From sequence record OP251154.1: a DNA stretch of 45,171 nucleotides; one strand, 5' to 3'. Below the pieces are notes generated by a model. That model saw only the letters and a program-made list of their open reading frames with translations, was not told the origin of the DNA and ran no database searches. Shown here piece after piece: positions 322 to 35,203 of this stretch. This DNA comes from Escherichia phage TR2. The translations under genes and the position numbers were made by a program. How positions within the stretch are numbered: the stretch's first letter is position 1; every line of letters begins with the position of its first letter.

Positions 322-397
322 TGGTGTTCCGCGCTGGACTCGAACCAGCAACTAAGACTTAGGAGGTCTTTGCGTTATCCTGTTACGCCAGCAGAAC
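322..397 (-). tRNA. tRNA-Arg (anticodon CCU, reads AGG)
   Basis: Manual cloverleaf on minus strand: acceptor GTTCTGC/GCGGAAC (one G-U), D-stem GCGT/ACGC with GG in loop, anticodon stem AAGAC/GTCTT, loop CT-CCT-AA, T-arm GCTGG-TTCGAGT-CCAGC, 3' ACCA. Confidence 0.8.
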
Positions 398-3636: not shown

Positions 3637-3655
3637 AATACATAAACCCAACGAA

Positions 3656-3699
3656 TAGCACTTTTTGCTAATGACAAACATTGGTAACGAGACCATAAT
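3656..3699 (+). promoter_or_regulatory. operator/-10 promoter cassette for the plus-strand early operon
   Basis: TAGCActtttTGCTA at 3656-3670, 23-nt spacer, CATAAT at 3694-3699, leader CATCAACAACGAGGAGAG, ATG at 3727. Confidence 0.55.
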
Positions 3700-4320: not shown

Positions 4321-4481
4321 TGCTATTACCATCTGAGATTAACTATTTTGATCTGGAAGTTATTAGTTCTTACAGCGGCAAGGGCTGGCCTTGCGGGGAA
4401 TGGTTCAACGAGGACTTGCTTGAATCTCACGAGATTATGCTTAAGGCGATTGAGAAGGCGAGAAATAGCACGAATTGCTAA
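4320..4481 (+). CDS. small hypothetical protein (53 aa)
   Basis: Manually translated MLLPSEINYFDLEV...ARNSTNC; ATG overlaps upstream stop; last codons are the operator sequence. Confidence 0.45.
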   Translation: MLLPSEINYFDLEVISSYSGKGWPCGEWFNEDLLESHEIMLKAIEKARNSTNC

Positions 4482-4508
4482 AGCCCTTCGGGGCTTTTGT
4501 TGTATAGT
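4466..4508 (+). promoter_or_regulatory. operator/-10 promoter cassette
   Basis: TAGCAcgaatTGCTA at 4466-4480, 22-nt spacer holding hairpin GCCCttcgGGGC plus T-run, TATAGT at 4503-4508, then CATCGAAACGAAA. Confidence 0.55.
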
Positions 4509-8482: not shown

Positions 8483-8525
8483 ATTATACCTAATTGCTGT
8501 GGCGATTGTTTAGCGATTCGTGCTA
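8483..8525 (-). promoter_or_regulatory. operator/-10 promoter cassette
   Basis: Gene-orientation TAGCAcgaatCGCTA (plus 8511-8525), 22-nt spacer, TATAAT (plus 8483-8488); operator encodes NSTNR-stop of upstream kinase. Confidence 0.55.
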
Positions 8526-9064
8526 TTTATTGCATCAATCACTTTTTCTGTAGTTATTTTAATATCACCTTCAATAACATCAATATCAATTTCCCTTGCG
8601 CAGAGGCCGCTAATGTATGACCTACTATCTCCTTCGAAAGTGTAACCAGGTCTATGAAGCCTAACCAATGTAACCTCAACACCACTTTCAATTAGTGGCT
8701 CAATTTCACTTGCAAATCCACCATCTGAACAGATGTGGCAACCATTGCCAAGAGACTGAGCTAGCCTTTTACCGAAAACTTCATCACCAAAAACTGGCTT
8801 CATCACTGATTCGCTAATCCAAATCATAAATTGACGAACAGTCATTCCACCAAGAAATTCATGTGGTGATTCTTTGTACTCTCGATCATCGTAATTCTTA
8901 ATAAATCCATCAAACTCATCGCTTGATAGCATGCTCTTAGCCACATTAAACATAGGTGATTTGAAAGAAACCTTATCCCTGCAAATTCCAAGTTTAACAA
9001 TGATATCTGCAACTGTATCTTTTCCAGCACCTGGGGGTCCATTAAGGATGATTAACTTTTTCAT
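8510..9064 (-). CDS. deoxynucleoside monophosphate kinase-like P-loop kinase
   Basis: N-terminus MKKLIILNGPPGAGKDT resembles T4 gp1 dNMP kinase; Walker A. Confidence 0.6.
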   Translation of the reverse strand: MKKLIILNGPPGAGKDTVADIIVKLGICRDKVSFKSPMFNVAKSMLSSDEFDGFIKNYDDREYKESPHEFLGGMTVRQFMIWISESVMKPVFGDEVFGKRLAQSLGNGCHICSDGGFASEIEPLIESGVEVTLVRLHRPGYTFEGDSRSYISGLCAREIDIDVIEGDIKITTEKVIDAINSTNR

Positions 9065-12032: not shown

Positions 12033-12075
12033 ATAATACACCACTTCATCAATTCGTCTTTAGCAATTCGTGCTA
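12033..12075 (-). promoter_or_regulatory. operator/-10 promoter cassette
   Basis: Plus 12061-12075 TAGCAattcgTGCTA; -10 TATTAT (plus 12033-12038) inside inverted repeat GATGAAGTG/CACTTCATC; leader CATCGAAACGAAA. Confidence 0.55.
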
Positions 12076-12492
12076 TTTTCTAATCATCTCTGCGAATGCA
12101 GCAAGAAAACCATCTCTGCCGTAGGCAACTCCTGCGAAACCGCCTGATTCCCTTACGCTTTTTAGGAATGACTTTTGCTCATCACTTACTGGGCTAGCCT
12201 GTGTTTTCCCAGCCCTCTTTAGCTCTATTGCGCCAAATGGATAACTTCCTCGTAATGACTCAGGTATTAGAAATAGGCAGTCTGATACGCCTTTAAGAAG
12301 TCCTTTAGCCTGGTCTTTCCTTGCCTGACCAATGCTCTTCATTGATTCATTAACTGTGTGCCAGTAAACAACCTGCGGATAGTTATACTTAACCCAATCA
12401 GAGCAAAAGATTTGTTCGTCGTCTTCCTTCGGGCATGACTTCACCGGGCCGCCATAGAACTCGAGGTAGTCAGTTTTGTCTGTAACTTTCAT
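12073..12492 (-). CDS. VRR-NUC domain nuclease
   Basis: PD-(D/E)XK-like motifs (GVSDCLFL, GAIELKRAGK, SPVSDEQKSFL); ATGA overlap with helicase stop. Confidence 0.6.
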   Translation of the reverse strand: MKVTDKTDYLEFYGGPVKSCPKEDDEQIFCSDWVKYNYPQVVYWHTVNESMKSIGQARKDQAKGLLKGVSDCLFLIPESLRGSYPFGAIELKRAGKTQASPVSDEQKSFLKSVRESGGFAGVAYGRDGFLAAFAEMIRK

Positions 12493-14579: not shown

Positions 14580-15062
14580 ATGTGTGAAATCGACAAGCGA
14601 ACTATTAACGGCAATAACGGAACCGTGCGCACAAAAGACAAAAAGCAACGCAAACGACCATCAGGCTACTACGTATTGAAAGATGAGGTAAAGGCTGGGC
14701 TACGTGCTCGCCTGGAGATGGTTCTTGATTTCTACGGTACAAAGGCGAACATCGCAAAGCAGTTAAATGTGTCCAACCAAGCTGTATCGGAATGGTTTAA
14801 CCGCGGTATGATTTCGGCTCGAGGGGCTCAGCGAGCACATAATGCGTACAAGCGAAATAAGGAGGGATTTCGAGCTACATTCTGCCGACCAGACCTGCAA
14901 TTCGACGGAAACGGAAAACCGCTAACACTTCGATGCAAGAAGCGCCATATGCTTCGCGTAGTTACCGATGCAGAACTAGCAACAAAGCCACCCTGTCGAC
15001 CATGGCGAAAGAATAAGGCCGCTAACGAGGCAGCGCGAAAAGCTAAAGAGCAAGGGAAATAG
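14580..15062 (+). CDS. putative HTH DNA-binding protein (Cro/YdaS-like)
   Basis: HTH-like segment KANIAKQLNVSNQAVSEWFNRG; basic C-terminal half; first gene of plus operon. Confidence 0.5.
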   Translation: MCEIDKRTINGNNGTVRTKDKKQRKRPSGYYVLKDEVKAGLRARLEMVLDFYGTKANIAKQLNVSNQAVSEWFNRGMISARGAQRAHNAYKRNKEGFRATFCRPDLQFDGNGKPLTLRCKKRHMLRVVTDAELATKPPCRPWRKNKAANEAARKAKEQGK

Positions 15063-15102
15063 CACGAATTGATAAACAGTGGCGCTATACATTGTGTATA
15101 GT
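15060..15102 (+). promoter_or_regulatory. operator/-10 promoter cassette
   Basis: TAGCAcgaatTGATA at 15060-15074, 22-nt spacer, TATAGT at 15097-15102. Confidence 0.55.
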
Positions 15103-18644: not shown

Positions 18645-19295
18645 TTAGAATGTATCGATTTCTTGAGATTGTACTTCAGCCTTTTCTTCTTGAACAGCTT
18701 TTTGTGCAACCTGCTTAGGTTTCGCTGGGTTGAAGCCCGTCATTGCACTAGCCTCAATCTCTGCTTTTCGCTCGATTATGTGAGGTTCGAAAACTTTCCA
18801 ACCCGCCGCATCAAGAGACTGTTTAGCCTCTTTCCAAACATTGCGGAGCTCATCAAGATTACTGCACTTATCAAGATCACGTTTAAAGTCTTTAACGCCC
18901 TTAGCCGCGAGATTACCATCGTCATCTGCCTGGCTAAGACCTAACGCTGCTGTGATTCCGTAACGACGCGCATATGTAAGGGAGGATCCATAACCCTGAG
19001 CGTCTTGCTTACTGATTGGTACAATCATTAAGAAGCTAACCCACTCCCCAGATTCTGCATGAAACAACTTGGTTTCAACCTTTAGGCGGCTTGTTGATTC
19101 ATCATCGATTACGCTCTGGAACATCACCAAACCACACTCATCTAAACCTGGCTCAACGGCCGCTAGTACGTCTTCAAGGGTAGCGTACTTGTTTTTTAGG
19201 TGAGAGTTCTGCTTTGACTTTTCAGCCTTCGCAAATAGTGATTTAGCGGTGTGTAGCGCGTTTAAAATTGATTTGCATGATTCTGAAATTTGCAT
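18645..19295 (-). CDS. ERF-family single-strand annealing protein
   Basis: KNKYATLEDVL and SSLTYARRYGITAALGL resemble conserved blocks of P22 Erf; adjacent to exonuclease and SSB. Confidence 0.7.
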   Translation of the reverse strand: MQISESCKSILNALHTAKSLFAKAEKSKQNSHLKNKYATLEDVLAAVEPGLDECGLVMFQSVIDDESTSRLKVETKLFHAESGEWVSFLMIVPISKQDAQGYGSSLTYARRYGITAALGLSQADDDGNLAAKGVKDFKRDLDKCSNLDELRNVWKEAKQSLDAAGWKVFEPHIIERKAEIEASAMTGFNPAKPKQVAQKAVQEEKAEVQSQEIDTF

Positions 19296-19324
19296 ATATT
19301 AACCTATATCGTTTCAATGGGGCA

Positions 19325-19367
19325 ATGATAACCCACCAGTTAATTTTGTCTTTAGCAATTAGTGCTA
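19325..19367 (-). promoter_or_regulatory. operator/-10 promoter cassette
   Basis: Plus 19353-19367 TAGCAattagTGCTA, 22-nt spacer, TATCAT (plus 19325-19330), leader CATTGAAACGA. Confidence 0.55.
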
Positions 19368-19844
19368 TTTACCATGATTTTCATGGAAGCCGTGCTCTAT
19401 TTCAGCCTTGATCCTTGCTGCTTTTGCGTCATCAATATCAGAAAAGCATCCCAGGTGATAATCGCGGCCGTTTACTCTAATATTTGATACGTACTTCGAT
19501 AACCTTTCAACCCATGAAACACCAATAACTCCAGTTTTGTTATTGAATCTAATTGATTGATTCATTGCATTCCCTTGTTTTGTGACAAGCCTTAGGTTTT
19601 CTATTCTGTTATCTGACCTGTCGTGATTTATGTGATCAATAAACATTGCATCATCAATATCACCATTAATCATCTCCCACACAATCCTATGCGACTTGTA
19701 ATACTTACCATCAAACCTAACGTTTATGTAACCATTTGATGAATTTACATGGCCTGCAACCATGCCTTTCCTTGCTCTAGATCCGAAGTTTTTCGCCCAA
19801 ACTAGGTTGCCTGAATCGTATATAAAAACATCATTCCATCCCAT
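19365..19844 (-). CDS. HNH homing endonuclease with AP2 domain
   Basis: IDHINHDRSDNRIENLRLV plus AP2-like NKTGVIGVSW. Confidence 0.8.
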   Translation of the reverse strand: MGWNDVFIYDSGNLVWAKNFGSRARKGMVAGHVNSSNGYINVRFDGKYYKSHRIVWEMINGDIDDAMFIDHINHDRSDNRIENLRLVTKQGNAMNQSIRFNNKTGVIGVSWVERLSKYVSNIRVNGRDYHLGCFSDIDDAKAARIKAEIEHGFHENHGK

Positions 19845-19878
19845 AAAATACTACCTATTTAATTAATTTGGTTTTTAA

Positions 19879-19921
19879 ATATTAACCCATCCTTTGTTTT
19901 TGTTTTTAACAAAAAGTGCTA
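19879..19921 (-). promoter_or_regulatory. operator/-10 promoter cassette
   Basis: Plus 19907-19921 TAACAaaaagTGCTA, 22-nt spacer, TAATAT (plus 19879-19884). Confidence 0.55.
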
Positions 19922-20890
19922 TTTTATTAGCTCCTGGTACTGTTTAGATACCCAATCAGGGATTATTAACTCTTGCTCCGCTATTCCACCAGAGTATCCA
20001 GGCCATTTGTCAGTTTGCTTGCAGTTCTTGTAAACAGATAGCGCTTCGCAATATTGGAGCCTACCAATCCTTAAGTGCTCATCACTCAATGTGTACATCA
20101 TTGGAAGGTATGGCTCCTCTTTTTCCTGAGCCAGCAATCTAACCTTAACTTTTCTTTTCTCATTGAATGCCCTTACAAACAAATCTCTTTGTAAACTCAT
20201 TTTCAGTAAGTACATATGTTTACAGGCTAATCTTCCAAACTCATCTGGAGATGCGCTTGAGGTTGTTTTAAAGTCGGTAATGTAAACAACGCCATCAACA
20301 ACATCCACATGGTCAAGTCGAACCTTAACGCCGCATCCGAGAATCTCACCAAAGATTGATAACTCTTTCTGCGCGGTTGGTGAATTAATAACCGCATCGT
20401 ATGCCGGAATGTTGGTAAGAACCTCGCGCATTGAGATTACCTTGTCGTAATCCTTTGCGCTAACCAGTTCCTTGCCACTAATTAACGCCCCAGCGCTCTC
20501 CTGCTGCTCAATTAGCCATTTAACAGGCCAATCCTCACCAGACTTATACATCATCTCTACTAGCTCGTTATAGTCCTTCCCTGAGGTGCCAGAAACTCCA
20601 ACTTTTTTAAGCGCCGCCGATAAAGCAGTTTGGCTAGTAATCAATCCTTCCACTTCATCAAAGTCTGTGGCTCGCATGCAAGTGGAATCGAACACTTCAC
20701 GCTCAAGCATCATGCAGTGACTGAGAGTGCCAAACTTTAGTGCTGCGCTTGAGTTATTGCGCTGCTTAAATTTCCATTTAGCTGGAGAGGTTGCCAGAAT
20801 CTCAGCCAGTGAAGATCCAGAGATGTGATCTTGTTCTTCGTGATAAGCCTCGTTGCTAAGTTCGTCATTTGTATATACGGTGAATGTCAT
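19919..20890 (-). CDS. PD-(D/E)XK exonuclease (RecE/Cas4-like)
   Basis: ITDFKT D..K motif and C-terminal Cys cluster; partnered with ERF and SSB. Confidence 0.6.
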   Translation of the reverse strand: MTFTVYTNDELSNEAYHEEQDHISGSSLAEILATSPAKWKFKQRNNSSAALKFGTLSHCMMLEREVFDSTCMRATDFDEVEGLITSQTALSAALKKVGVSGTSGKDYNELVEMMYKSGEDWPVKWLIEQQESAGALISGKELVSAKDYDKVISMREVLTNIPAYDAVINSPTAQKELSIFGEILGCGVKVRLDHVDVVDGVVYITDFKTTSSASPDEFGRLACKHMYLLKMSLQRDLFVRAFNEKRKVKVRLLAQEKEEPYLPMMYTLSDEHLRIGRLQYCEALSVYKNCKQTDKWPGYSGGIAEQELIIPDWVSKQYQELIK

Positions 20891-22277: not shown

Positions 22278-22304
22278 ATGATTTATGGGTAGACTTGAGA
22301 TAAA

Positions 22305-22347
22305 TAGCACGATTTGCTAAAGACAAGCTGCAATATTTGGGCATATT
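22305..22347 (+). promoter_or_regulatory. operator/-10 promoter cassette (weak -10)
   Basis: TAGCAcgattTGCTA at 22305-22319, 22-nt spacer, CATATT at 22342-22347. Confidence 0.45.
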
Positions 22348-22445: not shown

Positions 22446-22589
22446 ATGAAAATGAACCTAACTCTACTAAATGAAGATGTAAAAATGAACAGTTATCAGT
22501 TTTTGAATGAAGTTATCAACCCAGCGAGGTTAGTTGCCGGTGAATCTGATGTTCGGCACAATGACTTTGTTGAGAGGATAGAGGATTAG
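22446..22589 (+). CDS. small hypothetical protein (47 aa)
   Basis: Internal Met of ORF 22314..22589 after purine-rich SD; the 5' part of that ORF overlaps the promoter. Confidence 0.3.
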   Translation: MKMNLTLLNEDVKMNSYQFLNEVINPARLVAGESDVRHNDFVERIED

Positions 22590-22673
22590 CTTGAGGGGTT
22601 TGAGTTTGACTACGAAAGTTTCGTAATCAAAAGTGAGGGGAGAGGGGGTTATAGAAAGTCAATCAACTCACCA

Positions 22674-23129
22674 GTGCTTAATATGGAACAGATGCTTCTT
22701 GTTGGAATGCGTGAGTCAAAGTCTGTTCGCCGTGCGGTTCTTAATAAGCTTAAAGAGATGCAGTCCACCATCAACAAACAAACGGAAGTAATCAGCCAGA
22801 TGGTGAGTATTGATGAGCTAAAAGAAGCGCGCGTGATGCTTGGTGTGGCTAATGCGCAGAACGCTCACCTTAGCCAGCGAATCGTTGCGGAGCAGCGAAT
22901 CAATGAAATCCTCCTTATGGATAAGAACATTGACGAGAAGCTTGACCTTCTCGCTTGTGAAGCTCGGCAGTCTTGGGTATCACGTTCCGATGAAATGGAA
23001 GCAAGGTTTAGGTATGAAGCACAATGTTTCGCTCTTAAAGAGAAGACTGACGCACTGGCAGGATTGATCGAGAATAAACTTGGTATCGACATTAAGCCGT
23101 TGCTGGAAAGAAGCAGCACGAATAGCTAA
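22674..23129 (+). CDS. hypothetical coiled-coil protein (151 aa); start uncertain
   Basis: ORF track (GTG 22674 or ATG 22683); C-terminal codons SSTNS-stop are the next operator. Confidence 0.5.
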   Translation: MLNMEQMLLVGMRESKSVRRAVLNKLKEMQSTINKQTEVISQMVSIDELKEARVMLGVANAQNAHLSQRIVAEQRINEILLMDKNIDEKLDLLACEARQSWVSRSDEMEARFRYEAQCFALKEKTDALAGLIENKLGIDIKPLLERSSTNS

Positions 23130-23156
23130 AGACAAATTTCATTGGTGATGTACTAT
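23114..23156 (+). promoter_or_regulatory. operator/-10 promoter cassette
   Basis: CAGCAcgaatAGCTA at 23114-23128, 22-nt spacer, TACTAT at 23151-23156. Confidence 0.5.
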
Positions 23157-23185: not shown

Positions 23186-23446
23186 ATGAATAAGTCAGAA
23201 TTTATAGATAAGGTTAAGTTGGCAGGTTTGAAATTCAAAGTTGTTAGCGTTAGAGTCAATAAAGACAGGAACTACGGCCTCGAACAACAGTACTTCTCAC
23301 TTTGGCTGACTGGTTCAAATAGCTGCGACGAATCCTTAACTATGAGTGTTGACTGCATGCCACTACTTTTAAGATTCAAGTCACTGGAAAAGGCAATCAA
23401 TGAGAAGGATAAATATAACAGGTGGTTGAATAGCATTAATTGCTAA
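23186..23446 (+). CDS. hypothetical protein (86 aa)
   Basis: ORF track; C-terminal NSINC-stop encoded by the next operator. Confidence 0.5.
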   Translation: MNKSEFIDKVKLAGLKFKVVSVRVNKDRNYGLEQQYFSLWLTGSNSCDESLTMSVDCMPLLLRFKSLEKAINEKDKYNRWLNSINC

Positions 23447-23473
23447 AGACAAAACTCACAGTTGAGGTATGAT
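23431..23473 (+). promoter_or_regulatory. operator/-10 promoter cassette
   Basis: TAGCAttaatTGCTA at 23431-23445, 22-nt spacer, TATGAT at 23468-23473, then CATCGAAACGAAA. Confidence 0.55.
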
Positions 23474-23514
23474 TACTCCATCGAAACGAAATGCACATTC
23501 TAAGGAATAAGAAA

Positions 23515-23757
23515 ATGACTAACTTAATCAAACTTTCAATCATCGCCGCAGCAGCAATCATGATGGTGGGTTGCTCTTCTGGTCCTCGTCCTGACGGTTG
23601 GTGTGCAACGCAAGCAAACGGAGTATGCGTGGCTAAATGGAAAGGTGGAGTGGTTCTACCGGCTGGTGAAGTTGATGTGCGCTACGACGGCATTAAGATG
23701 AATGGTGGCGGTTACAGCGGGTCTGTTGCTGACCACGGCTCTAAGGAGTGGAAATAA
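23515..23757 (+). CDS. small lipoprotein (Cor/Llp-like superinfection-exclusion candidate)
   Basis: Signal peptide with lipobox (IMMVGCSS); ~80 aa; start set at ATG 23515 after AAGGA; overlaps start of next gene. Confidence 0.55.
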
Positions 23758-24713
23758 TGGGTCAAGGTATCTACATAAACCTTAATGATGGAAGGCCGGC
23801 AATGGAGATAACATCAGGTTTGAGAATTCCAAATGTGACAGGTTCAGTTCCAACGTCAGGTTTCAACTCAGCAAATGGAGGTTTAACTTTCGGTCTTACA
23901 CAAACTAGTGGATCAACTGCATTCATGCTTCCAATTAAAGCGGTTGATGTAGTTGTTTTTGGCGTAGTGCCTGAGGTTTATTACCTAAATGGATTCCAGC
24001 GTGTATCAGACTCACAGGGAAGGATAAATGTTAGTAACTTCAACGGTGCTAGAGGAAGGTTGATAAACTTCTCAGGTAACTGCCTTGAGATAACGGGTGC
24101 TGCAAGTGGGCAGGGAATTTTGGTTGCAAACTCAACTGACTTTGTTTCCATAACAACAAACTCAAGGATACTTACCGCTCAATATGTAGGGACTGTTACA
24201 GTAAATGGTAGTTACAAACTTCCAGTTACTGGAGTTCCTTTTGGGAGGTGGAGTGACCCGAATGTAACTGTTGAATTTGATGGGGACAGCATACTTTGCA
24301 GAAGCAACTCATATACTGGAATTGATAATGTTGGCGCATCTGTAACTATAGATCTCGTTATATTCAATAATACAGCTCCAGTTGGCGGACCTGGAATAAC
24401 TATAGTAAACCCAGCTGGTCAGGTTGTTTTCTCGACAGTTAAGCGTCCATTTGTTCTTGGTGGATTTCTACAGTTAACAAATTCATTCCAGTCAATAGGT
24501 GGTGGGTACTTCCCAATACTTAGAACCGGAGCATACACTCGGGTAACTGGTGGCTATAACAACCTCCGGTATAAAGGTGTCGTTATGTCTGGTGGCTCAG
24601 TTAGGAGTGAGTTCGGAAGCGTTATTGGTAACTACTCAACGAAAACAGGAGCACGGTTCCCATTCAACACAAATATAGCAATGTCACTCCCATACCTTCC
24701 AAACATGTATTAA
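23757..24713 (+). CDS. candidate receptor-binding protein (beta-rich, 318 aa)
   Basis: G/S/T/N/V-rich composition typical of fibre or RBP domains; coupled to the lipoprotein, convergent with gpJ-like gene; start at ATG 23757 after AAGGAG. Confidence 0.45.
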   Translation: MGQGIYINLNDGRPAMEITSGLRIPNVTGSVPTSGFNSANGGLTFGLTQTSGSTAFMLPIKAVDVVVFGVVPEVYYLNGFQRVSDSQGRINVSNFNGARGRLINFSGNCLEITGAASGQGILVANSTDFVSITTNSRILTAQYVGTVTVNGSYKLPVTGVPFGRWSDPNVTVEFDGDSILCRSNSYTGIDNVGASVTIDLVIFNNTAPVGGPGITIVNPAGQVVFSTVKRPFVLGGFLQLTNSFQSIGGGYFPILRTGAYTRVTGGYNNLRYKGVVMSGGSVRSEFGSVIGNYSTKTGARFPFNTNIAMSLPYLPNMY

Positions 24714-24744
24714 AGATAAAGCCCCTTTCGGGGCTTTTATTTTA
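24714..24744. terminator. bidirectional rho-independent terminator
   Basis: A-run, GCCCC-tttc-GGGGC, T-run; between the candidate RBP and gpJ-like gene. Confidence 0.7.
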
Positions 24745-27700
24745 GAACGTACCTACAACAACCCTCCCCCCATTCGCCAGGTTAACAGTGATCCCGTTTC
24801 CGTTAATCTGAACCGTGTTATTAGTGCCGTTGAATGCAAAGTTACCACTGTTGGCGTACAGACTACCCCTTACGGTTGCGTTACTAAACTCGGCGCTACC
24901 TGACTTATCAATCGACCATCCCTGAGATCCAGCAACGTAATTGTTAGACTGAATCCGGTTTCCAATCTTCGCGTTAGTGATTGAACCATCCTGGATTACT
25001 GCGCTCTGGATGAACACCTGATTATTCTCAACCACGAAAGGCAGTGACCACTGACCGGAACCTGAGCTAATGCCGTTACTGATTGCGAACCTGTTAGCAT
25101 CAAAGATAACCTGACTGCGAACATTGCCACCAGAACCGGCTAGCTCCATGCTCATTCCAGAACTGTATTCAACACCATTGTATTTAAGTCCAAGTTTAAC
25201 CCCGTACTGCGCACCAATTGAATCAGCGGTAACGTAGGTGTCCAGCTTCTCATTTAGAGCGGCCTCATTATCACCAAGCCTTGCTGATAATGCAGTGTCA
25301 GCAGTGGTTCTTGCTTGAGTTTCTTCCGCAAGTGCAACGTCAATCCTTGTAAGAGATGCAACAACCTCATCGTCTATCTGTGCTTTAAGCTGCGTAAGAG
25401 CCTCTACACGAGCCTTTTTCTCATCGGCGATAAGATTCACTGCCTGAACAAATTCAGCCTTCCTCTTGCCGTTTTCCTTTGTCATTCTTCGAACGTCACC
25501 TTCATTCGCGAGGGCGTTCTCAATAATTGATTCAGCTTGCGCCTGTATAGCAGAGTTCTTTTCTATGGCATTCTGTTGGAGATACTTGAACCCCTCAGAG
25601 TTCTCTATATCAACCTTTATTTCGCCAATGATAGATTCCACATTATCACTTGCCATTCCACGCACAAAGTCAGTCCACGGAGAGGCGTTACCAATCTTGT
25701 CGATTAGTCGCGCCCTGTACCAGATGACCTTACCTGCAGGTAATGTAGTGTGCCAATACTCGTAGCTCGGGTAAGGAACTAGTGTTAACAAGCTGGCATT
25801 CTCTGGAGAGTAAGTGCCATCACCATTGTCGGCTACTTGCTGCAATTCAGTATATGACGTATCGGCCGAGTTCTCAGGGAAGCCCCACTTAACCCTAATA
25901 CCAAATACTTCATCATCTGAAGCCGTGATTACAGTTGGTGCAGACGGTGTTCCAATTTTACCTGTAAGGCTAGCCGAAGCAATGTCAGACCATGCAGAAA
26001 CGTTTTCAGTATCAGAAACAGCCCTTACGCGAACCTGATAAATTCCAGCATAGATACCTTCAATATCAATCTCTGTATTCGCTGTGCGCGGTACGTTAAT
26101 CCAGTTTCCATTCTCCTTTCTCCATTGGACTGTGTAGGTCTTAGCGTATTGAACCTTATCCCAGGTGATTATCATTGTTTCAACTGATAAACCCTGCACA
26201 ACCTTGCTGTAGCTGCTCACCTGAACATTCTCTGGCGCCAGTAATGTATCTGGTTCAACGATTGACGTTGGTCTGTCCTGAATGTTTACGCCGTAATCAA
26301 TCTCGTCGTATTTGTTCGGGTCGTACTCAACTGCCGTAATCGTGTAGCCAAAAGCATCATCTCCATCGCTATCAGCTTTTTGAATCCCGGTAACAACATA
26401 CTGCTGAAGCGCCAGATTTTCCTTATCAATCGCGAACACAGTATCCGGCTGAGGAGTAAAGCTAAAAGCTGTGTTAAGTTGCAGCGTCATTCCATCTTCA
26501 GATACAGATGCAATTGTCCTGTACTCAGGCATGCCGTCAGGCTTGTTAATTAGAATCCTGTCGCCAGCAGCAGCATCAATTTTAAACGGCACAAAAACCT
26601 GTAACCCACTCACTGACTCGATGCGACCAGAGAGGTTGAGGGTGTAGTTGCTAGACCAGGCCTGGTCATTAACCGCAATCACCTCACCAATCATAGGTAT
26701 CATCCCTTCCAGACCTGTAGTGAAGCTGACTGTCTCACTGCGGAGGTTTGTCTTTAACAGCCATCGACCACGGCGGTTTGCTTCACTCCTGCGAGTGCAC
26801 CCAATGGCTGTCAGGTCAACCGGGTTGTAACCGAAACGCCTTGTTGCCTCCAGTTCGAATACTGGCTCAACATCCTGTTGGTATGAGTTTTCAACGTCAT
26901 CAAACTGAACGTTAGCGACTGTGTACAGTGACTTGTCGCTACCAAACGTGCGGTTAAACAGACCATCAACAACGTTGTCGTTGGTAAAGACGTATGAAGG
27001 CTGGCGTGGCTTATCGACAACAATCCCTATCTGCTCGCCATCATAAAAGGTTAACCCACGGAAGATAGAGCAAATGTCACGGATTACCTGATACGCTTCA
27101 ACCTTCTGCTGAATAACAACGTCGCACAGGTATCTAGGCTCCATCCCACCCTTGCCATCTGGAACCATCTGGTCACAGAACTGCGCAGCTTCATACAGAC
27201 CCCACTTATCAATCGTGATACCAAGCTCACGCTGGTCCAGACCGTAACGCTGATTCGTTACCAGATCGTAAAGAACCCAGGCTGGGTTGTTGGAGTAAGC
27301 CATCTTAAATGTTCCGTTCCAGGTTCCGCTATAAGTCCTTGTCTCTGGGTTGTAGTTGGTCGGAACGCGAATCAACTTCCACCTCTTCTTGATTGAAATC
27401 GTCGGGATTCCGTTAGGGAAGAGGTCAGAACTAAACTCAACGTAAACCAGCGCTGTAAGTGGGTAGCGGAACTTGGCGTCGATTACTTCCTGATAGGTCG
27501 TAATTTGCATGTCGTTAACCAGCGTCGAACTTTCTGAATCTGCCGTGATCTTACGAACCCTCACCAACGCACTCGAGAACTCAGCAGGAAGATTAACCCT
27601 AATGCTCCTGTCGTATCCGCTGGTTGTCTTGCCATTAGCCACGCCTCGAGTGTATTCAGTGTATGTAGCGCCATCAACGGACAGGTCAATCGCATACTCG

Positions 27701-28128
27701 CAAGATGTTCCGTTCAGGTCGCCATTGTTCTCTTGTTTAATTAATCGAGGCCAGAACAGCTTAACCCTGATTGCTGATAGCTGAGTGTTGTTAACGGCAA
27801 TGATGTAAGGTGTTGAGTTGGATATTTCCCTGTTAACCTGCACCTCTGAGTTCGCGCCCTCTAGCCCGGCAATGTAGTCCTGACTCTGTGTGCCTGGGCG
27901 AAATTCTGCCGTTACACCCTCGTAGTTGTATGTTCCATTCTGATTCTGAACCGGAACGTCAGCGAGATACAGATCCTTTAGTGAGAACGAATTATCGACC
28001 TCGCCATCAGAAACGGCCAGTAAAACCTTAACCTTGTTTACAGATATTAGGTTGTCAGGTTGCTCTACAGGCTGGTGCTGCTTCGGTTGCCCGCCCTTAC
28101 TGCCGTAAATTTTAATGTCCTGCGCCAT
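24742..28128 (-). CDS. central tail fibre / host-specificity protein (lambda gpJ-like)
   Basis: 1128 aa; last gene of the gpM-L-K-I-J syntenic block. Confidence 0.8.
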   Translation of the reverse strand: MAQDIKIYGSKGGQPKQHQPVEQPDNLISVNKVKVLLAVSDGEVDNSFSLKDLYLADVPVQNQNGTYNYEGVTAEFRPGTQSQDYIAGLEGANSEVQVNREISNSTPYIIAVNNTQLSAIRVKLFWPRLIKQENNGDLNGTSCEYAIDLSVDGATYTEYTRGVANGKTTSGYDRSIRVNLPAEFSSALVRVRKITADSESSTLVNDMQITTYQEVIDAKFRYPLTALVYVEFSSDLFPNGIPTISIKKRWKLIRVPTNYNPETRTYSGTWNGTFKMAYSNNPAWVLYDLVTNQRYGLDQRELGITIDKWGLYEAAQFCDQMVPDGKGGMEPRYLCDVVIQQKVEAYQVIRDICSIFRGLTFYDGEQIGIVVDKPRQPSYVFTNDNVVDGLFNRTFGSDKSLYTVANVQFDDVENSYQQDVEPVFELEATRRFGYNPVDLTAIGCTRRSEANRRGRWLLKTNLRSETVSFTTGLEGMIPMIGEVIAVNDQAWSSNYTLNLSGRIESVSGLQVFVPFKIDAAAGDRILINKPDGMPEYRTIASVSEDGMTLQLNTAFSFTPQPDTVFAIDKENLALQQYVVTGIQKADSDGDDAFGYTITAVEYDPNKYDEIDYGVNIQDRPTSIVEPDTLLAPENVQVSSYSKVVQGLSVETMIITWDKVQYAKTYTVQWRKENGNWINVPRTANTEIDIEGIYAGIYQVRVRAVSDTENVSAWSDIASASLTGKIGTPSAPTVITASDDEVFGIRVKWGFPENSADTSYTELQQVADNGDGTYSPENASLLTLVPYPSYEYWHTTLPAGKVIWYRARLIDKIGNASPWTDFVRGMASDNVESIIGEIKVDIENSEGFKYLQQNAIEKNSAIQAQAESIIENALANEGDVRRMTKENGKRKAEFVQAVNLIADEKKARVEALTQLKAQIDDEVVASLTRIDVALAEETQARTTADTALSARLGDNEAALNEKLDTYVTADSIGAQYGVKLGLKYNGVEYSSGMSMELAGSGGNVRSQVIFDANRFAISNGISSGSGQWSLPFVVENNQVFIQSAVIQDGSITNAKIGNRIQSNNYVAGSQGWSIDKSGSAEFSNATVRGSLYANSGNFAFNGTNNTVQINGNGITVNLANGGRVVVGTF

Positions 28129-29817: not shown

Positions 29818-29859
29818 TATATACCATCCCTGGCAGTTTGTATTTATCAAAAAATGCTA
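29818..29859 (-). promoter_or_regulatory. operator/-10 promoter cassette
   Basis: Plus 29845-29859 TATCAaaaaaTGCTA, 21-nt spacer, TATATA (plus 29818-29823), leader CACAAACGA. Confidence 0.5.
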
Positions 29860-30615
29860 TTAGTTCTGATTATTCTTAGCTTGTAAACTTGCGGAGGCAC
29901 ACCCCCCAAATGATAGCTGGTTGTTTTCACCAAACCTCAACTTACAGGCATCAACAGTTCCGGCGCAAAAATCTAACCCAGGGTCATCAACCGGATTATT
30001 GTCTTTGTCGAAGTAGCGATTCCCAGCATAATCGCAACCGTTGCCACTGCGATACCATCCACGAGAAGCAAAGTAACATACTGACTGGACTAGCCTCGCT
30101 GGAATATAGATACCATCCATATCAATTGGGCTAGATAACTCAAAAGAGGCAGTCTTGTAGTCAACCTGCTTTGGACGCTCAATAAAGTAAACCATCTTAC
30201 GATAATCGCCATCTGCAATGCTGCCATCATCATTGATATTATCCCTGATAGTAACCCAGATTGTTACCTTCGCCTGAACCATGCCATTGTACTGACGGAT
30301 TAGCGAGGAAACAGCCTGGTCAACGTTTGATAAAGTTAGCGTGAGCTTGTTTGCTTTTCCATCAGATGTAAGGTTGATGCCGCTAATGCCGAAAGGTCTG
30401 GCTCCATACTCTTCGCCACGAAATGTAATTGTCTTGGCTGGTAGTGGCTGACCAGATGCCTGGGCTTGCATGATTTCTTCAGGCGTGTATGAGATATTCT
30501 CCCCATGAAACCTGTAAACCCTTGCGCCGAACTTGCTGCCATCAACCTCAATAAGCGTAACCACTTCACCAGGGAAAAGTGATTGAAGTTGGTTTTCAAA
30601 CTTTACACTTGCCAT
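29860..30615 (-). CDS. minor tail protein (lambda gpL-like)
   Basis: Synteny TMP-M-L-K-I-J; size close to gpL; C-terminal Cys cluster. Confidence 0.65.
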   Translation of the reverse strand: MASVKFENQLQSLFPGEVVTLIEVDGSKFGARVYRFHGENISYTPEEIMQAQASGQPLPAKTITFRGEEYGARPFGISGINLTSDGKANKLTLTLSNVDQAVSSLIRQYNGMVQAKVTIWVTIRDNINDDGSIADGDYRKMVYFIERPKQVDYKTASFELSSPIDMDGIYIPARLVQSVCYFASRGWYRSGNGCDYAGNRYFDKDNNPVDDPGLDFCAGTVDACKLRFGENNQLSFGGCASASLQAKNNQN

Positions 30616-35156: not shown

Positions 35157-35199
35157 ATAATAGCAAATCCCTGCCACACGTCTTTAACAAAAAGTGCTA
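35157..35199 (-). promoter_or_regulatory. operator/-10 promoter cassette inside the tail module
   Basis: Plus 35185-35199 TAACAaaaagTGCTA, 22-nt spacer, TATTAT (plus 35157-35162), leader ATCGAAACGAG. Confidence 0.55.
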
Positions 35200-35203
35200 T
35201 CAA

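Follow-up and report, generated by a model that had tools for sequence, protein, structure and literature searches.

Introduction

In T1-like coliphages, the pairing of a receptor-binding protein (RBP) gene with a gene for a superinfection-exclusion lipoprotein is already well described, and such two-gene cassettes are an ordinary determinant of host range. A 2026 preprint covering 255 coliphages found four unrelated protein families at this locus, in one-to-one correspondence with the receptors FhuA, BtuB, LptD and YncD, with a family defined by >30% identity at >99% coverage. The closest described counterparts of the locus considered here are Rtp44/Rtp45 of phage Rtp and bas01_0028/0029 of AugustePiccard (Bas01), phages that Maffei 2021 (PMC8594841) showed or predicted to depend on LptD. 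For phage OzMSK, dependence is experimental, as two strains with loop deletions in lptD cannot be infected by it (Black 2025, PMC13035648). Structures are available for both halves of the system: the RBP of Oekolampad (Bas18, Dhillonvirus) has been solved on open-state LptDE (PDB 9RPT), and the Rtp45-LptDE(M) structure has Rtp45 located periplasmically, close to strands 5-8 (Dunbar 2025, PNAS, PMC12685063). In the latter, residues 30-35 of Rtp45 pair with LptD residues 318-323, a disulfide joins Cys30 and Cys38, and a hairpin reaching up the LptD lumen shifts extracellular loop EL4 by up to 20 Å, rendering LptD incompatible with RBP binding (PMC12685063). The exclusion lipoprotein of Oekolampad is only ~35% identical to Rtp45 (PMC12685063).

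Two further systems offer functional parallels. In T5, which uses FhuA, the monomeric tail-tip RBP pb5 is likewise accompanied by a small periplasmic-face lipoprotein, Llp, that makes the receptor unbindable, but the effect of Llp on its TonB-dependent transporter is a long-range allosteric one, whereas Rtp45 physically moves a loop (PMC12685063). The Cor proteins of T1, N15 and phi80 are also small superinfection-excluding lipoproteins encoded beside tail-tip genes, but they target FhuA.

Escherichia phage TR2 is a T1-like siphophage of the Drexlerviridae, subfamily Braunvirinae; the sequence analysed (OP251154.1, 45,171 nucleotides) is referred to below as the window. Among the records of the phage collection, CY1_Cui-2023 (Drexlerviridae, Braunvirinae) came closest, with 99.8% identity over this locus. 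LptD is nowhere mentioned in the paper describing TR2, which leaves the receptor unnamed. Here, we describe a lipoprotein gene and its neighbour, convergent with the gpJ-like gene, that very probably constitute an LptD-type 'bona fide RBP locus', encoding an RBP and an LptD-blocking lipoprotein.

Organisation of the locus

The features of the locus are collected in Table 1. An initial annotation from the letters alone had proposed an 80-aa lipoprotein adjoining a 318-aa protein rich in Gly, Ser, Thr and Asn, and this arrangement is confirmed: the lipoprotein stop codon TAA (23755-57) and the ATG of the larger gene (23757-59) overlap by one base within TAATG (23755-23759), the second gene has its own Shine-Dalgarno (SD) sequence, AAGGAG, 8 nt 5' of its ATG, and the four residues make up 40% of its product. 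The identical 1-nt overlap is annotated in OzMSK, Rtp, ACG-M12, ETEP102, CEB_EC3a and Bas01. With Rtp and AugustePiccard the locus also shares gene order, convergent position after gpJ, terminator position, promoter cassette and J tip. The exact TR2 protein records are UXQ90373.1 (80 aa) and UXQ90374.1 (318 aa).

Table 1. Features of the putative receptor-binding and exclusion locus of TR2, in window coordinates
Feature	Coordinates	Strand	Basis
21-bp box ATAGCATTAATTGCTAAAGAC, inverted repeat TAGCA-N5-TGCTA, upstream half of promoter cassette	23430..23450	+	repetition, conservation
Sigma-70-like promoter, -35-like AAGACA, 16-nt spacer, -10 TATGAT	23446..23473	+	9/12 match, conserved spacing
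Conserved block TACTCCATCGAAACGAAA, discriminator and leader start, directly after -10	23474..23491	+	repetition
Predicted Rtp45-type superinfection-exclusion lipoprotein, 80 aa	23515..23757	+	PF24052, identity to Rtp45 and OzMSK
Putative RBP, DUF6453 / Rtp44 / RBP-Oekolampad family, 318 aa, predicted LptD binder	23757..24713	+	PF20051, 9RPT_C, AF2/Foldseek
Bidirectional intrinsic terminator, 8-bp GC-rich stem, T runs on both sides	24718..24737	.	both-strand call, folding
3' end of gpJ-like gene, last ~60-67 codons, LptD-type tip, presumed RBP docking site	24742..24944	-	TR3 breakpoint, tip identity
gpJ-like central tail fibre / tail tip protein, 1128 aa, presumed RBP carrier	24742..28128	-	Pfam, PHROG 31

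At the 3' side, the bidirectional terminator that had been proposed as shared with the gpJ-like gene was recovered as a hairpin called on both strands. It lies 4 nt past the stop codon of the 318-aa gene and 4 nt past that of the convergent gpJ-like gene, folds with -14.9 and -14.4 kcal/mol (z = -3.1 and -4.2 against shuffled controls), and is annotated at the equivalent place in ETEP102 and CEB_EC3a.

A repeated promoter cassette

At the 5' side, the promoter cassette initially assigned to the pair is real as a conserved sequence element, a conclusion carried by its conservation and its 11 copies and not by a generic sigma-70 scan, which alone returned 4 sites against 4.2 expected and was thus not above chance. 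The cassette consists of the box ATAGCACGAATTGCTAAAGAC (TAGCA-N5-TGCTA), a 17-nt spacer, a TATNAT hexamer and, mostly, a (T)ACCnCATCGAAACGAAA-like block. Nine copies of the 21-bp box occur in the genome at <=3 mismatches, with none expected; at <=4 mismatches there are 11 in the window and 11 in Rtp. The distance from box to -10 is 17 nt in about 17 of these 22 cassette copies and within 1-2 nt of this in the rest, and every copy in the window is followed on the same strand, 60-105 nt 3', by an SD and an ATG. The block TACTCCATCGAAACGAAA recurs in 4 copies at <=3 mismatches against 0.04 expected.

At the locus itself, the ~90 nt 5' of the lipoprotein start, including the block 23430-23491, are kept in OzMSK, Rtp, ACG-M12, ETEP102 and CEB_EC3a, whilst the genes upstream of them are unrelated among the phages (a methylase, an anti-repressor, hypothetical genes or, in Rtp, no co-directional gene). 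It is this conservation despite unrelated upstream genes, together with the block being one of 11 copies in the genome, that makes the lipoprotein promoter cassette credible, and transcription would probably start near 23480. The TAA within the box (23444-23446) doubles as the stop codon of the upstream 86-aa ORF. Consecutive cassette copies at 22304, 23113 and 23430 precede a KilA-like gene, the 86-aa ORF and the lipoprotein gene, respectively, and read-through from upstream is therefore also possible.

The leader 20-mer also sits 3' of consensus TTGACx-17-TAxxAT promoters in unrelated viral contigs; in one prophage contig that shares it (L012), it is located near a CI-like repressor gene and not at a late promoter. 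A search of the window and of three contigs sharing the 20-mer against Rfam at the gathering threshold returned only a tRNA at 325-397, and a covarying hairpin in the promoter spacer was considered and rejected, its stems not being consistently compensated across six phages. Nothing relevant on the box or leader sequences was found in a literature search, and the papers on T1-like phages that were consulted mention only generic promoter predictions. As a side observation worth following, homology breakpoints fall on copies of the 21-bp palindromic box, which is present at 11 promoters in the genome.

The lipoprotein belongs to the Rtp45 family

Two candidate ATGs open the lipoprotein reading frame (23491/23515-23757). 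The downstream start, which yields 80 aa, is preceded by the SD AAGGA (23502-23506, 8 nt 5' of the ATG) and is kept in six related phages, among which the upstream start, yielding 88 aa, is not conserved. The lipobox noted initially is upheld: the product carries a signal peptide with a hydrophobic core at residues 7-19 and, at its end, the lipobox M-V-G-C20, which is followed by Ser at +2. As lipoproteins with a residue other than Asp at +2 are directed to the outer membrane by the Lol pathway, this would be the predicted destination of the TR2 protein.

Residues 1-79 match PF24052 (Phage_lipoprotein) at 6e-39, with 132.2 bits against a gathering cut-off of 27. The protein is 81% identical to its OzMSK homologue and 87% identical to Rtp45 of phage Rtp (PDB 9RPS chain D), with 57 of the first 60 residues the same and its three cysteines (Cys20, Cys30 and Cys38) all kept. 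The strand at residues 30-35, which in Rtp45 pairs with LptD, reads CATQAN in TR2 and CATQAS in Rtp45 (five of six residues the same); the main difference between the two is a four-residue insertion (MNGG) after Lys61, alongside a few changes at the C-terminus.

The initial annotation had likened this protein to Cor and Llp. As a functional analogy the comparison stands, but T5 Llp and pb5 are unrelated to the TR2 proteins in sequence or fold: when the PDB was searched with phmmer and with a profile at E values up to 10, 9RPS_D and 9RPT_C were the sole matches, and Foldseek of the 318-aa model against the PDB gave no pb5 match. T1 Cor reaches PF24052 only below threshold (E 0.005; 17.3 bits, cut-off 27), and its BLASTP alignment with the TR2 lipoprotein (31% identity over 81 columns, 25% gaps) lies mostly within the signal peptide, suggesting that the two are at best remotely related. 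The T1 locus also differs in layout, with two co-directional genes after gpJ and no DUF6453 gene there.

The 318-aa protein belongs to a structurally solved receptor-binding family

Residues 4-295 of the 318-aa protein match PF20051 (DUF6453) at 5e-131, with 436.8 bits against a gathering cut-off of 25. In sequence searches of the whole PDB, the only match was the 'tail fiber protein' of 9RPT/9RPW/9RQI, i.e. the Oekolampad RBP, which aligned with 9RPT_C over its full length (E 8e-65; 2e-127 with a family profile). End-to-end identity is 61% to the OzMSK RBP, 46% to Rtp44 and bas01_0028, and 43% to the Oekolampad RBP. The protein thus falls within the preprint's family definition, with >30% identity at >99% coverage to RBPs of LptD-dependent phages. 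Of these, the OzMSK / MSK protein (CPT_vB_ecoS_OzMSK_038) is the closest RBP with experimental LptD dependence, although that phage is of another genus and the upstream neighbour of its cassette is a DNA methylase, as opposed to the KilA and 86-aa ORFs of TR2.

The structure-based comparison with known RBPs that had been suggested at the outset points to the same family. An AF2 model built with 33 family members (pLDDT 84.8, pTM 0.84) is almost all beta and adopts the double beta-sandwich fold of the solved RBP; against the PDB, Foldseek gave 9RPT_C as the single match below 1e-3 (E 3.6e-21, TM 0.69/0.85, the latter on the target). Conservation across the family is uneven. Invariant or near-invariant residues cluster N-terminally (G4, I7, D11-G12, I18-T19, G21, R23), and the tip loops are the parts that vary most (segments 29-49, 63-107, 236-241 and 296-303). 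The tip loops of TR2 differ from those of Oekolampad, and at the position of Gln299, a contact residue of the Oekolampad RBP, TR2 has a different residue, within a hypervariable loop. Given this substitution, the mode of LptD binding may differ in detail.

The gpJ tip and the boundaries of the module

The gene convergent with the pair encodes a lambda gpJ-type protein (Pfam FNIII-A_GpJ, Phage-tail_3 and Phage_Tail_Tip; PHROG 31, central tail fiber J). TR3, the closest relative by backbone, is 100% identical in gpJ over residues ~50-700, but similarity to it is lost between 23096 and 24944 and TR3 has another type of locus, with different genes after gpJ. As the loss of similarity extends to 24944, the exchanged segment includes the last ~60-67 gpJ codons. 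The TR3 tip is unrelated to that of TR2, which is 85-95% identical in OzMSK, Rtp, ACG-M12, ETEP102, CEB_EC3a and Bas01, phages in which the RBPs are only 46-62% identical to that of TR2. The 318-aa gene sits directly downstream of, and converges with, a gpJ homologue bearing the LptD-associated type of tip.

Judged by these comparisons, the gpJ tip (~60 codons) is part of the module and changes together with the type of RBP. The shared synteny of the tip and the modular exchange relative to TR3 agree with the account given by Maffei 2021 (PMC8594841), in which RBP loci are transferred horizontally. The pattern of residue conservation in the RBP family would fit a division of labour in which the conserved base docks on the J tip and the variable loops meet LptD, in line with Black 2025 (PMC13035648) and with the remark on J-tip/RBP compatibility in the 2026 preprint.

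Receptor assignment

The initial annotation had described a candidate receptor-binding and receptor-blocking module beside gpJ and a likely host-range determinant, and both descriptions hold through the homologues (PMC8594841, PMC12685063, PMC13035648) and through membership of the LptD-type RBP and exclusion families. Its further statement that specificity was unknown can be replaced, as both proteins belong to LptD-specific families and not to those for FhuA, BtuB or YncD. Indirect support comes from TR2 itself, for which one adsorption-defective resistant mutant carries a point mutation in lptA, and from phage JNUWD, which is blocked by the lptD substitutions Y671D/D336Y/D352Y and rescued by wild-type lptD. 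JNUWD and CY1, to which TR2 is most closely related, share 99.6% identity in the large-terminase gene.

Counting against LptD, the TR2-resistant mutants sequenced to date map outside lptD. This observation would also be accommodated if the pair were an RBP/exclusion module for which LptD is insufficient, with gpJ itself recognising a second outer-membrane protein; indeed, Bas01, a member of the Braunvirinae with the same type of locus, requires both NupG and LptD (2026 preprint). We consider such a second receptor improbable for TR2, as the ~33-residue insertion that marks Bas01 gpJ is absent from TR2 gpJ, with which Rtp, OzMSK and TR3 align likewise without it, although the role of this insertion as the NupG determinant is itself inferred. 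It is less probable still, and would be quite surprising, that the pair is directed at a receptor other than LptD (FhuA, BtuB, YncD or another) owing to divergence of its tip loops. These loops are hypervariable and no LptD-verified RBP comes closer than 61% identity, but the FhuA, BtuB, YncD and LptD loci use four unrelated protein families with no exceptions reported (PMC8594841, 2026 preprint), and the TR2 exclusion lipoprotein, which has to block the receptor of its own phage, is 87% identical to the LptDE-bound Rtp45. Least credible of all is a non-virion membrane protein or moron paired with a lipoprotein that either blocks FhuA in the manner of Cor or acts in lysis as a spanin: the 'membrane protein / moron' label of PHROG 1265, the 'membrane protein' label of RefSeq homologues, a single 19-residue window with a Kyte-Doolittle value of 1.77 and the weak match of Cor to PF24052 all lean that way, but the label is outdated and was rejected on structural grounds (the homologue being a soluble beta-sandwich solved on LptDE), the likeness to Cor is the sub-threshold one noted above, and the holin, endolysin and spanin genes of Rtp lie elsewhere in its genome.

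Under the LptD reading, infection by TR2 would proceed as follows. Both genes would be read from one copy of the standard promoter cassette of the phage, with transcription stopping at the terminator shared with gpJ. The 318-aa beta-sandwich protein would serve as the terminal RBP, its conserved N-terminal base docking on the gpJ-like protein through non-covalent contacts at the C-terminal tip, and its variable tip loops would enter the LPS translocon LptDE from the extracellular side, touching EL3-5 and EL11, a contact that would commit the phage to DNA injection. After export and lipidation at Cys20, the co-transcribed 80-aa protein would be directed to the outer membrane, in whose inner leaflet it may bind the periplasmic or lumenal side of LptD and push EL4 outward. 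Displacement of this loop would leave incoming or released virions unable to bind infected cells or debris.

Implications

As a contribution to the family, the TR2 locus adds one more allele, with an RBP <=61% identical to any characterised one, to a group that has already been solved structurally. The assignment of LptD as the predicted receptor has more immediate value for TR2 and its near-twin CY1, both of which are contaminants of industrial fermentation, and in whose papers and records these genes are labelled only 'hypothetical', 'DUF6453' or 'lipoprotein'. It points to a ready countermeasure in the form of a published lptD EL11 loop deletion.

LptA bridges the periplasm and supplies LptDE with LPS. 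The adsorption-defective resistant mutant described in the TR2 paper, BL21(DE3)-N-2, combines an lptA point mutation with a frameshift in an LPS glucosyltransferase gene, and assignment of LptD might account for the lptA change, which otherwise lacks an explanation. It is conceivable, though doubtful, that the lptA mutation alone reduces TR2 adsorption and is an in-vivo sign that this RBP family needs an open, LPS-translocating LptDE, a requirement put forward as a hypothesis by Dunbar et al. (PMC12685063). Were this the case, adsorption would report active LPS export, and resistance would be possible without any change in the receptor.

A promoter box repeated across the genome

The window contains 11 copies (see table) of the 21-bp box ATAGCACGAATTGCTAAAGAC, which carries the inverted repeat TAGCA-N5-TGCTA; the genome of Rtp, a related phage with an LptD-type locus, also contains 11. 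In most copies a TATNAT-like hexamer follows 17 nt downstream (15-18 nt in the others), and in 11 of 11 window copies a Shine-Dalgarno sequence and ATG lie on the same strand, 60-105 nt beyond the box. Because the palindrome is centred at about -42 relative to the inferred transcription start and the canonical -35 positions are only weakly conserved, these promoters look like a family under the control of an activator or a repressor. Among viral contigs of 42-53 kb, at least 120 stretches carry an 18-mer of the box without mismatch; a literature search gave no match to the box sequence.

The 20-mer ATTACTCCATCGAAACGAAA, immediately 3' of the -10 hexamer ahead of the lipoprotein gene, is shared with unrelated viral or prophage contigs (L008, L009, L010-L015, L017 and L020), where it always stands directly 3' of a consensus TTGACx-17-TAxxAT promoter and where unrelated sequence follows it. 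No Rfam family matched it at the gathering threshold in the window or in three contigs containing the 20-mer.

Positions of the features described, in the window unless a phage is named
Feature	Position	Strand	Remark
21-bp box	3655-3675, 4465-4485, 15059-15079, 22304-22324, 23113-23133, 23430-23450	+
21-bp box	2032-2052, 8506-8526, 12056-12076, 19348-19368, 35180-35200	-
20-mer ATTACTCCATCGAAACGAAA	23472-23491
KilA / anti-repressor-like gene	22446-23129	+	compared with CY1
86-aa ORF	23186-23446	+	PHROG 4423; between KilA-like and lipoprotein genes
gpJ-like gene	24742-28128	-	compared with TR3 and Bas01
tRNA gene	325-397	-	Rfam RF00005, 59 bits
RCIP0026, the two genes ~10 kb apart (DUF6453 gene, lipoprotein homologue)	19247-20200 and 29839-30027		Webervirus example

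Modular exchange around the receptor-binding locus

Homology of the RBP/exclusion module (the lipoprotein gene, the gene for the DUF6453 protein predicted to bind LptD, and the last ~60 codons of the convergent gpJ-like gene) to other phages breaks, at 23096-23133 and 23429-23450, on copies of the box: similarity begins at 23115 in six records and at 23429 in thirteen, and that of the backbone relative TR3 ends at 23096. Module exchange may use the boxes as linkers for recombination, which recalls the PeSL cassettes of T4-type phages.

Upstream, the 86-aa ORF has its own promoter box and is common to the window and ACG-M12-type phages, being absent from OzMSK, Rtp and ETEP102. The KilA-like gene is broken by an in-frame TAG (22587-22589, Glu48 to stop) and differs at two further amino acids from its intact 227-aa counterpart in CY1, the nearest relative. 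Downstream, comparison of gpJ sequences shows a mosaic gradient within a single gene, with 100% identity to TR3 over residues ~50-700 and a stepwise departure from it beyond ~700 towards the C terminus; a ~33-residue insertion of Bas01 gpJ is missing. The genome also encodes one tRNA, and a single arginyl-tRNA has been reported for related T1-like phages.

A predicted exclusion lipoprotein and its distant homologues

The exclusion lipoprotein is much better conserved than the RBP, at 87% versus 46% identity to Rtp and 81% versus 61% to OzMSK. In Klebsiella Webervirus phages the lipoprotein homologue and the DUF6453 gene stand ~10 kb apart. The lambdoid phage mEp021 and phiEco32-like podophages (Kuravirus, Bas93), in which no DUF6453 match was found, likewise carry lipoprotein homologues, at 37-48% identity; this hints that these phages, too, may act on LptD.
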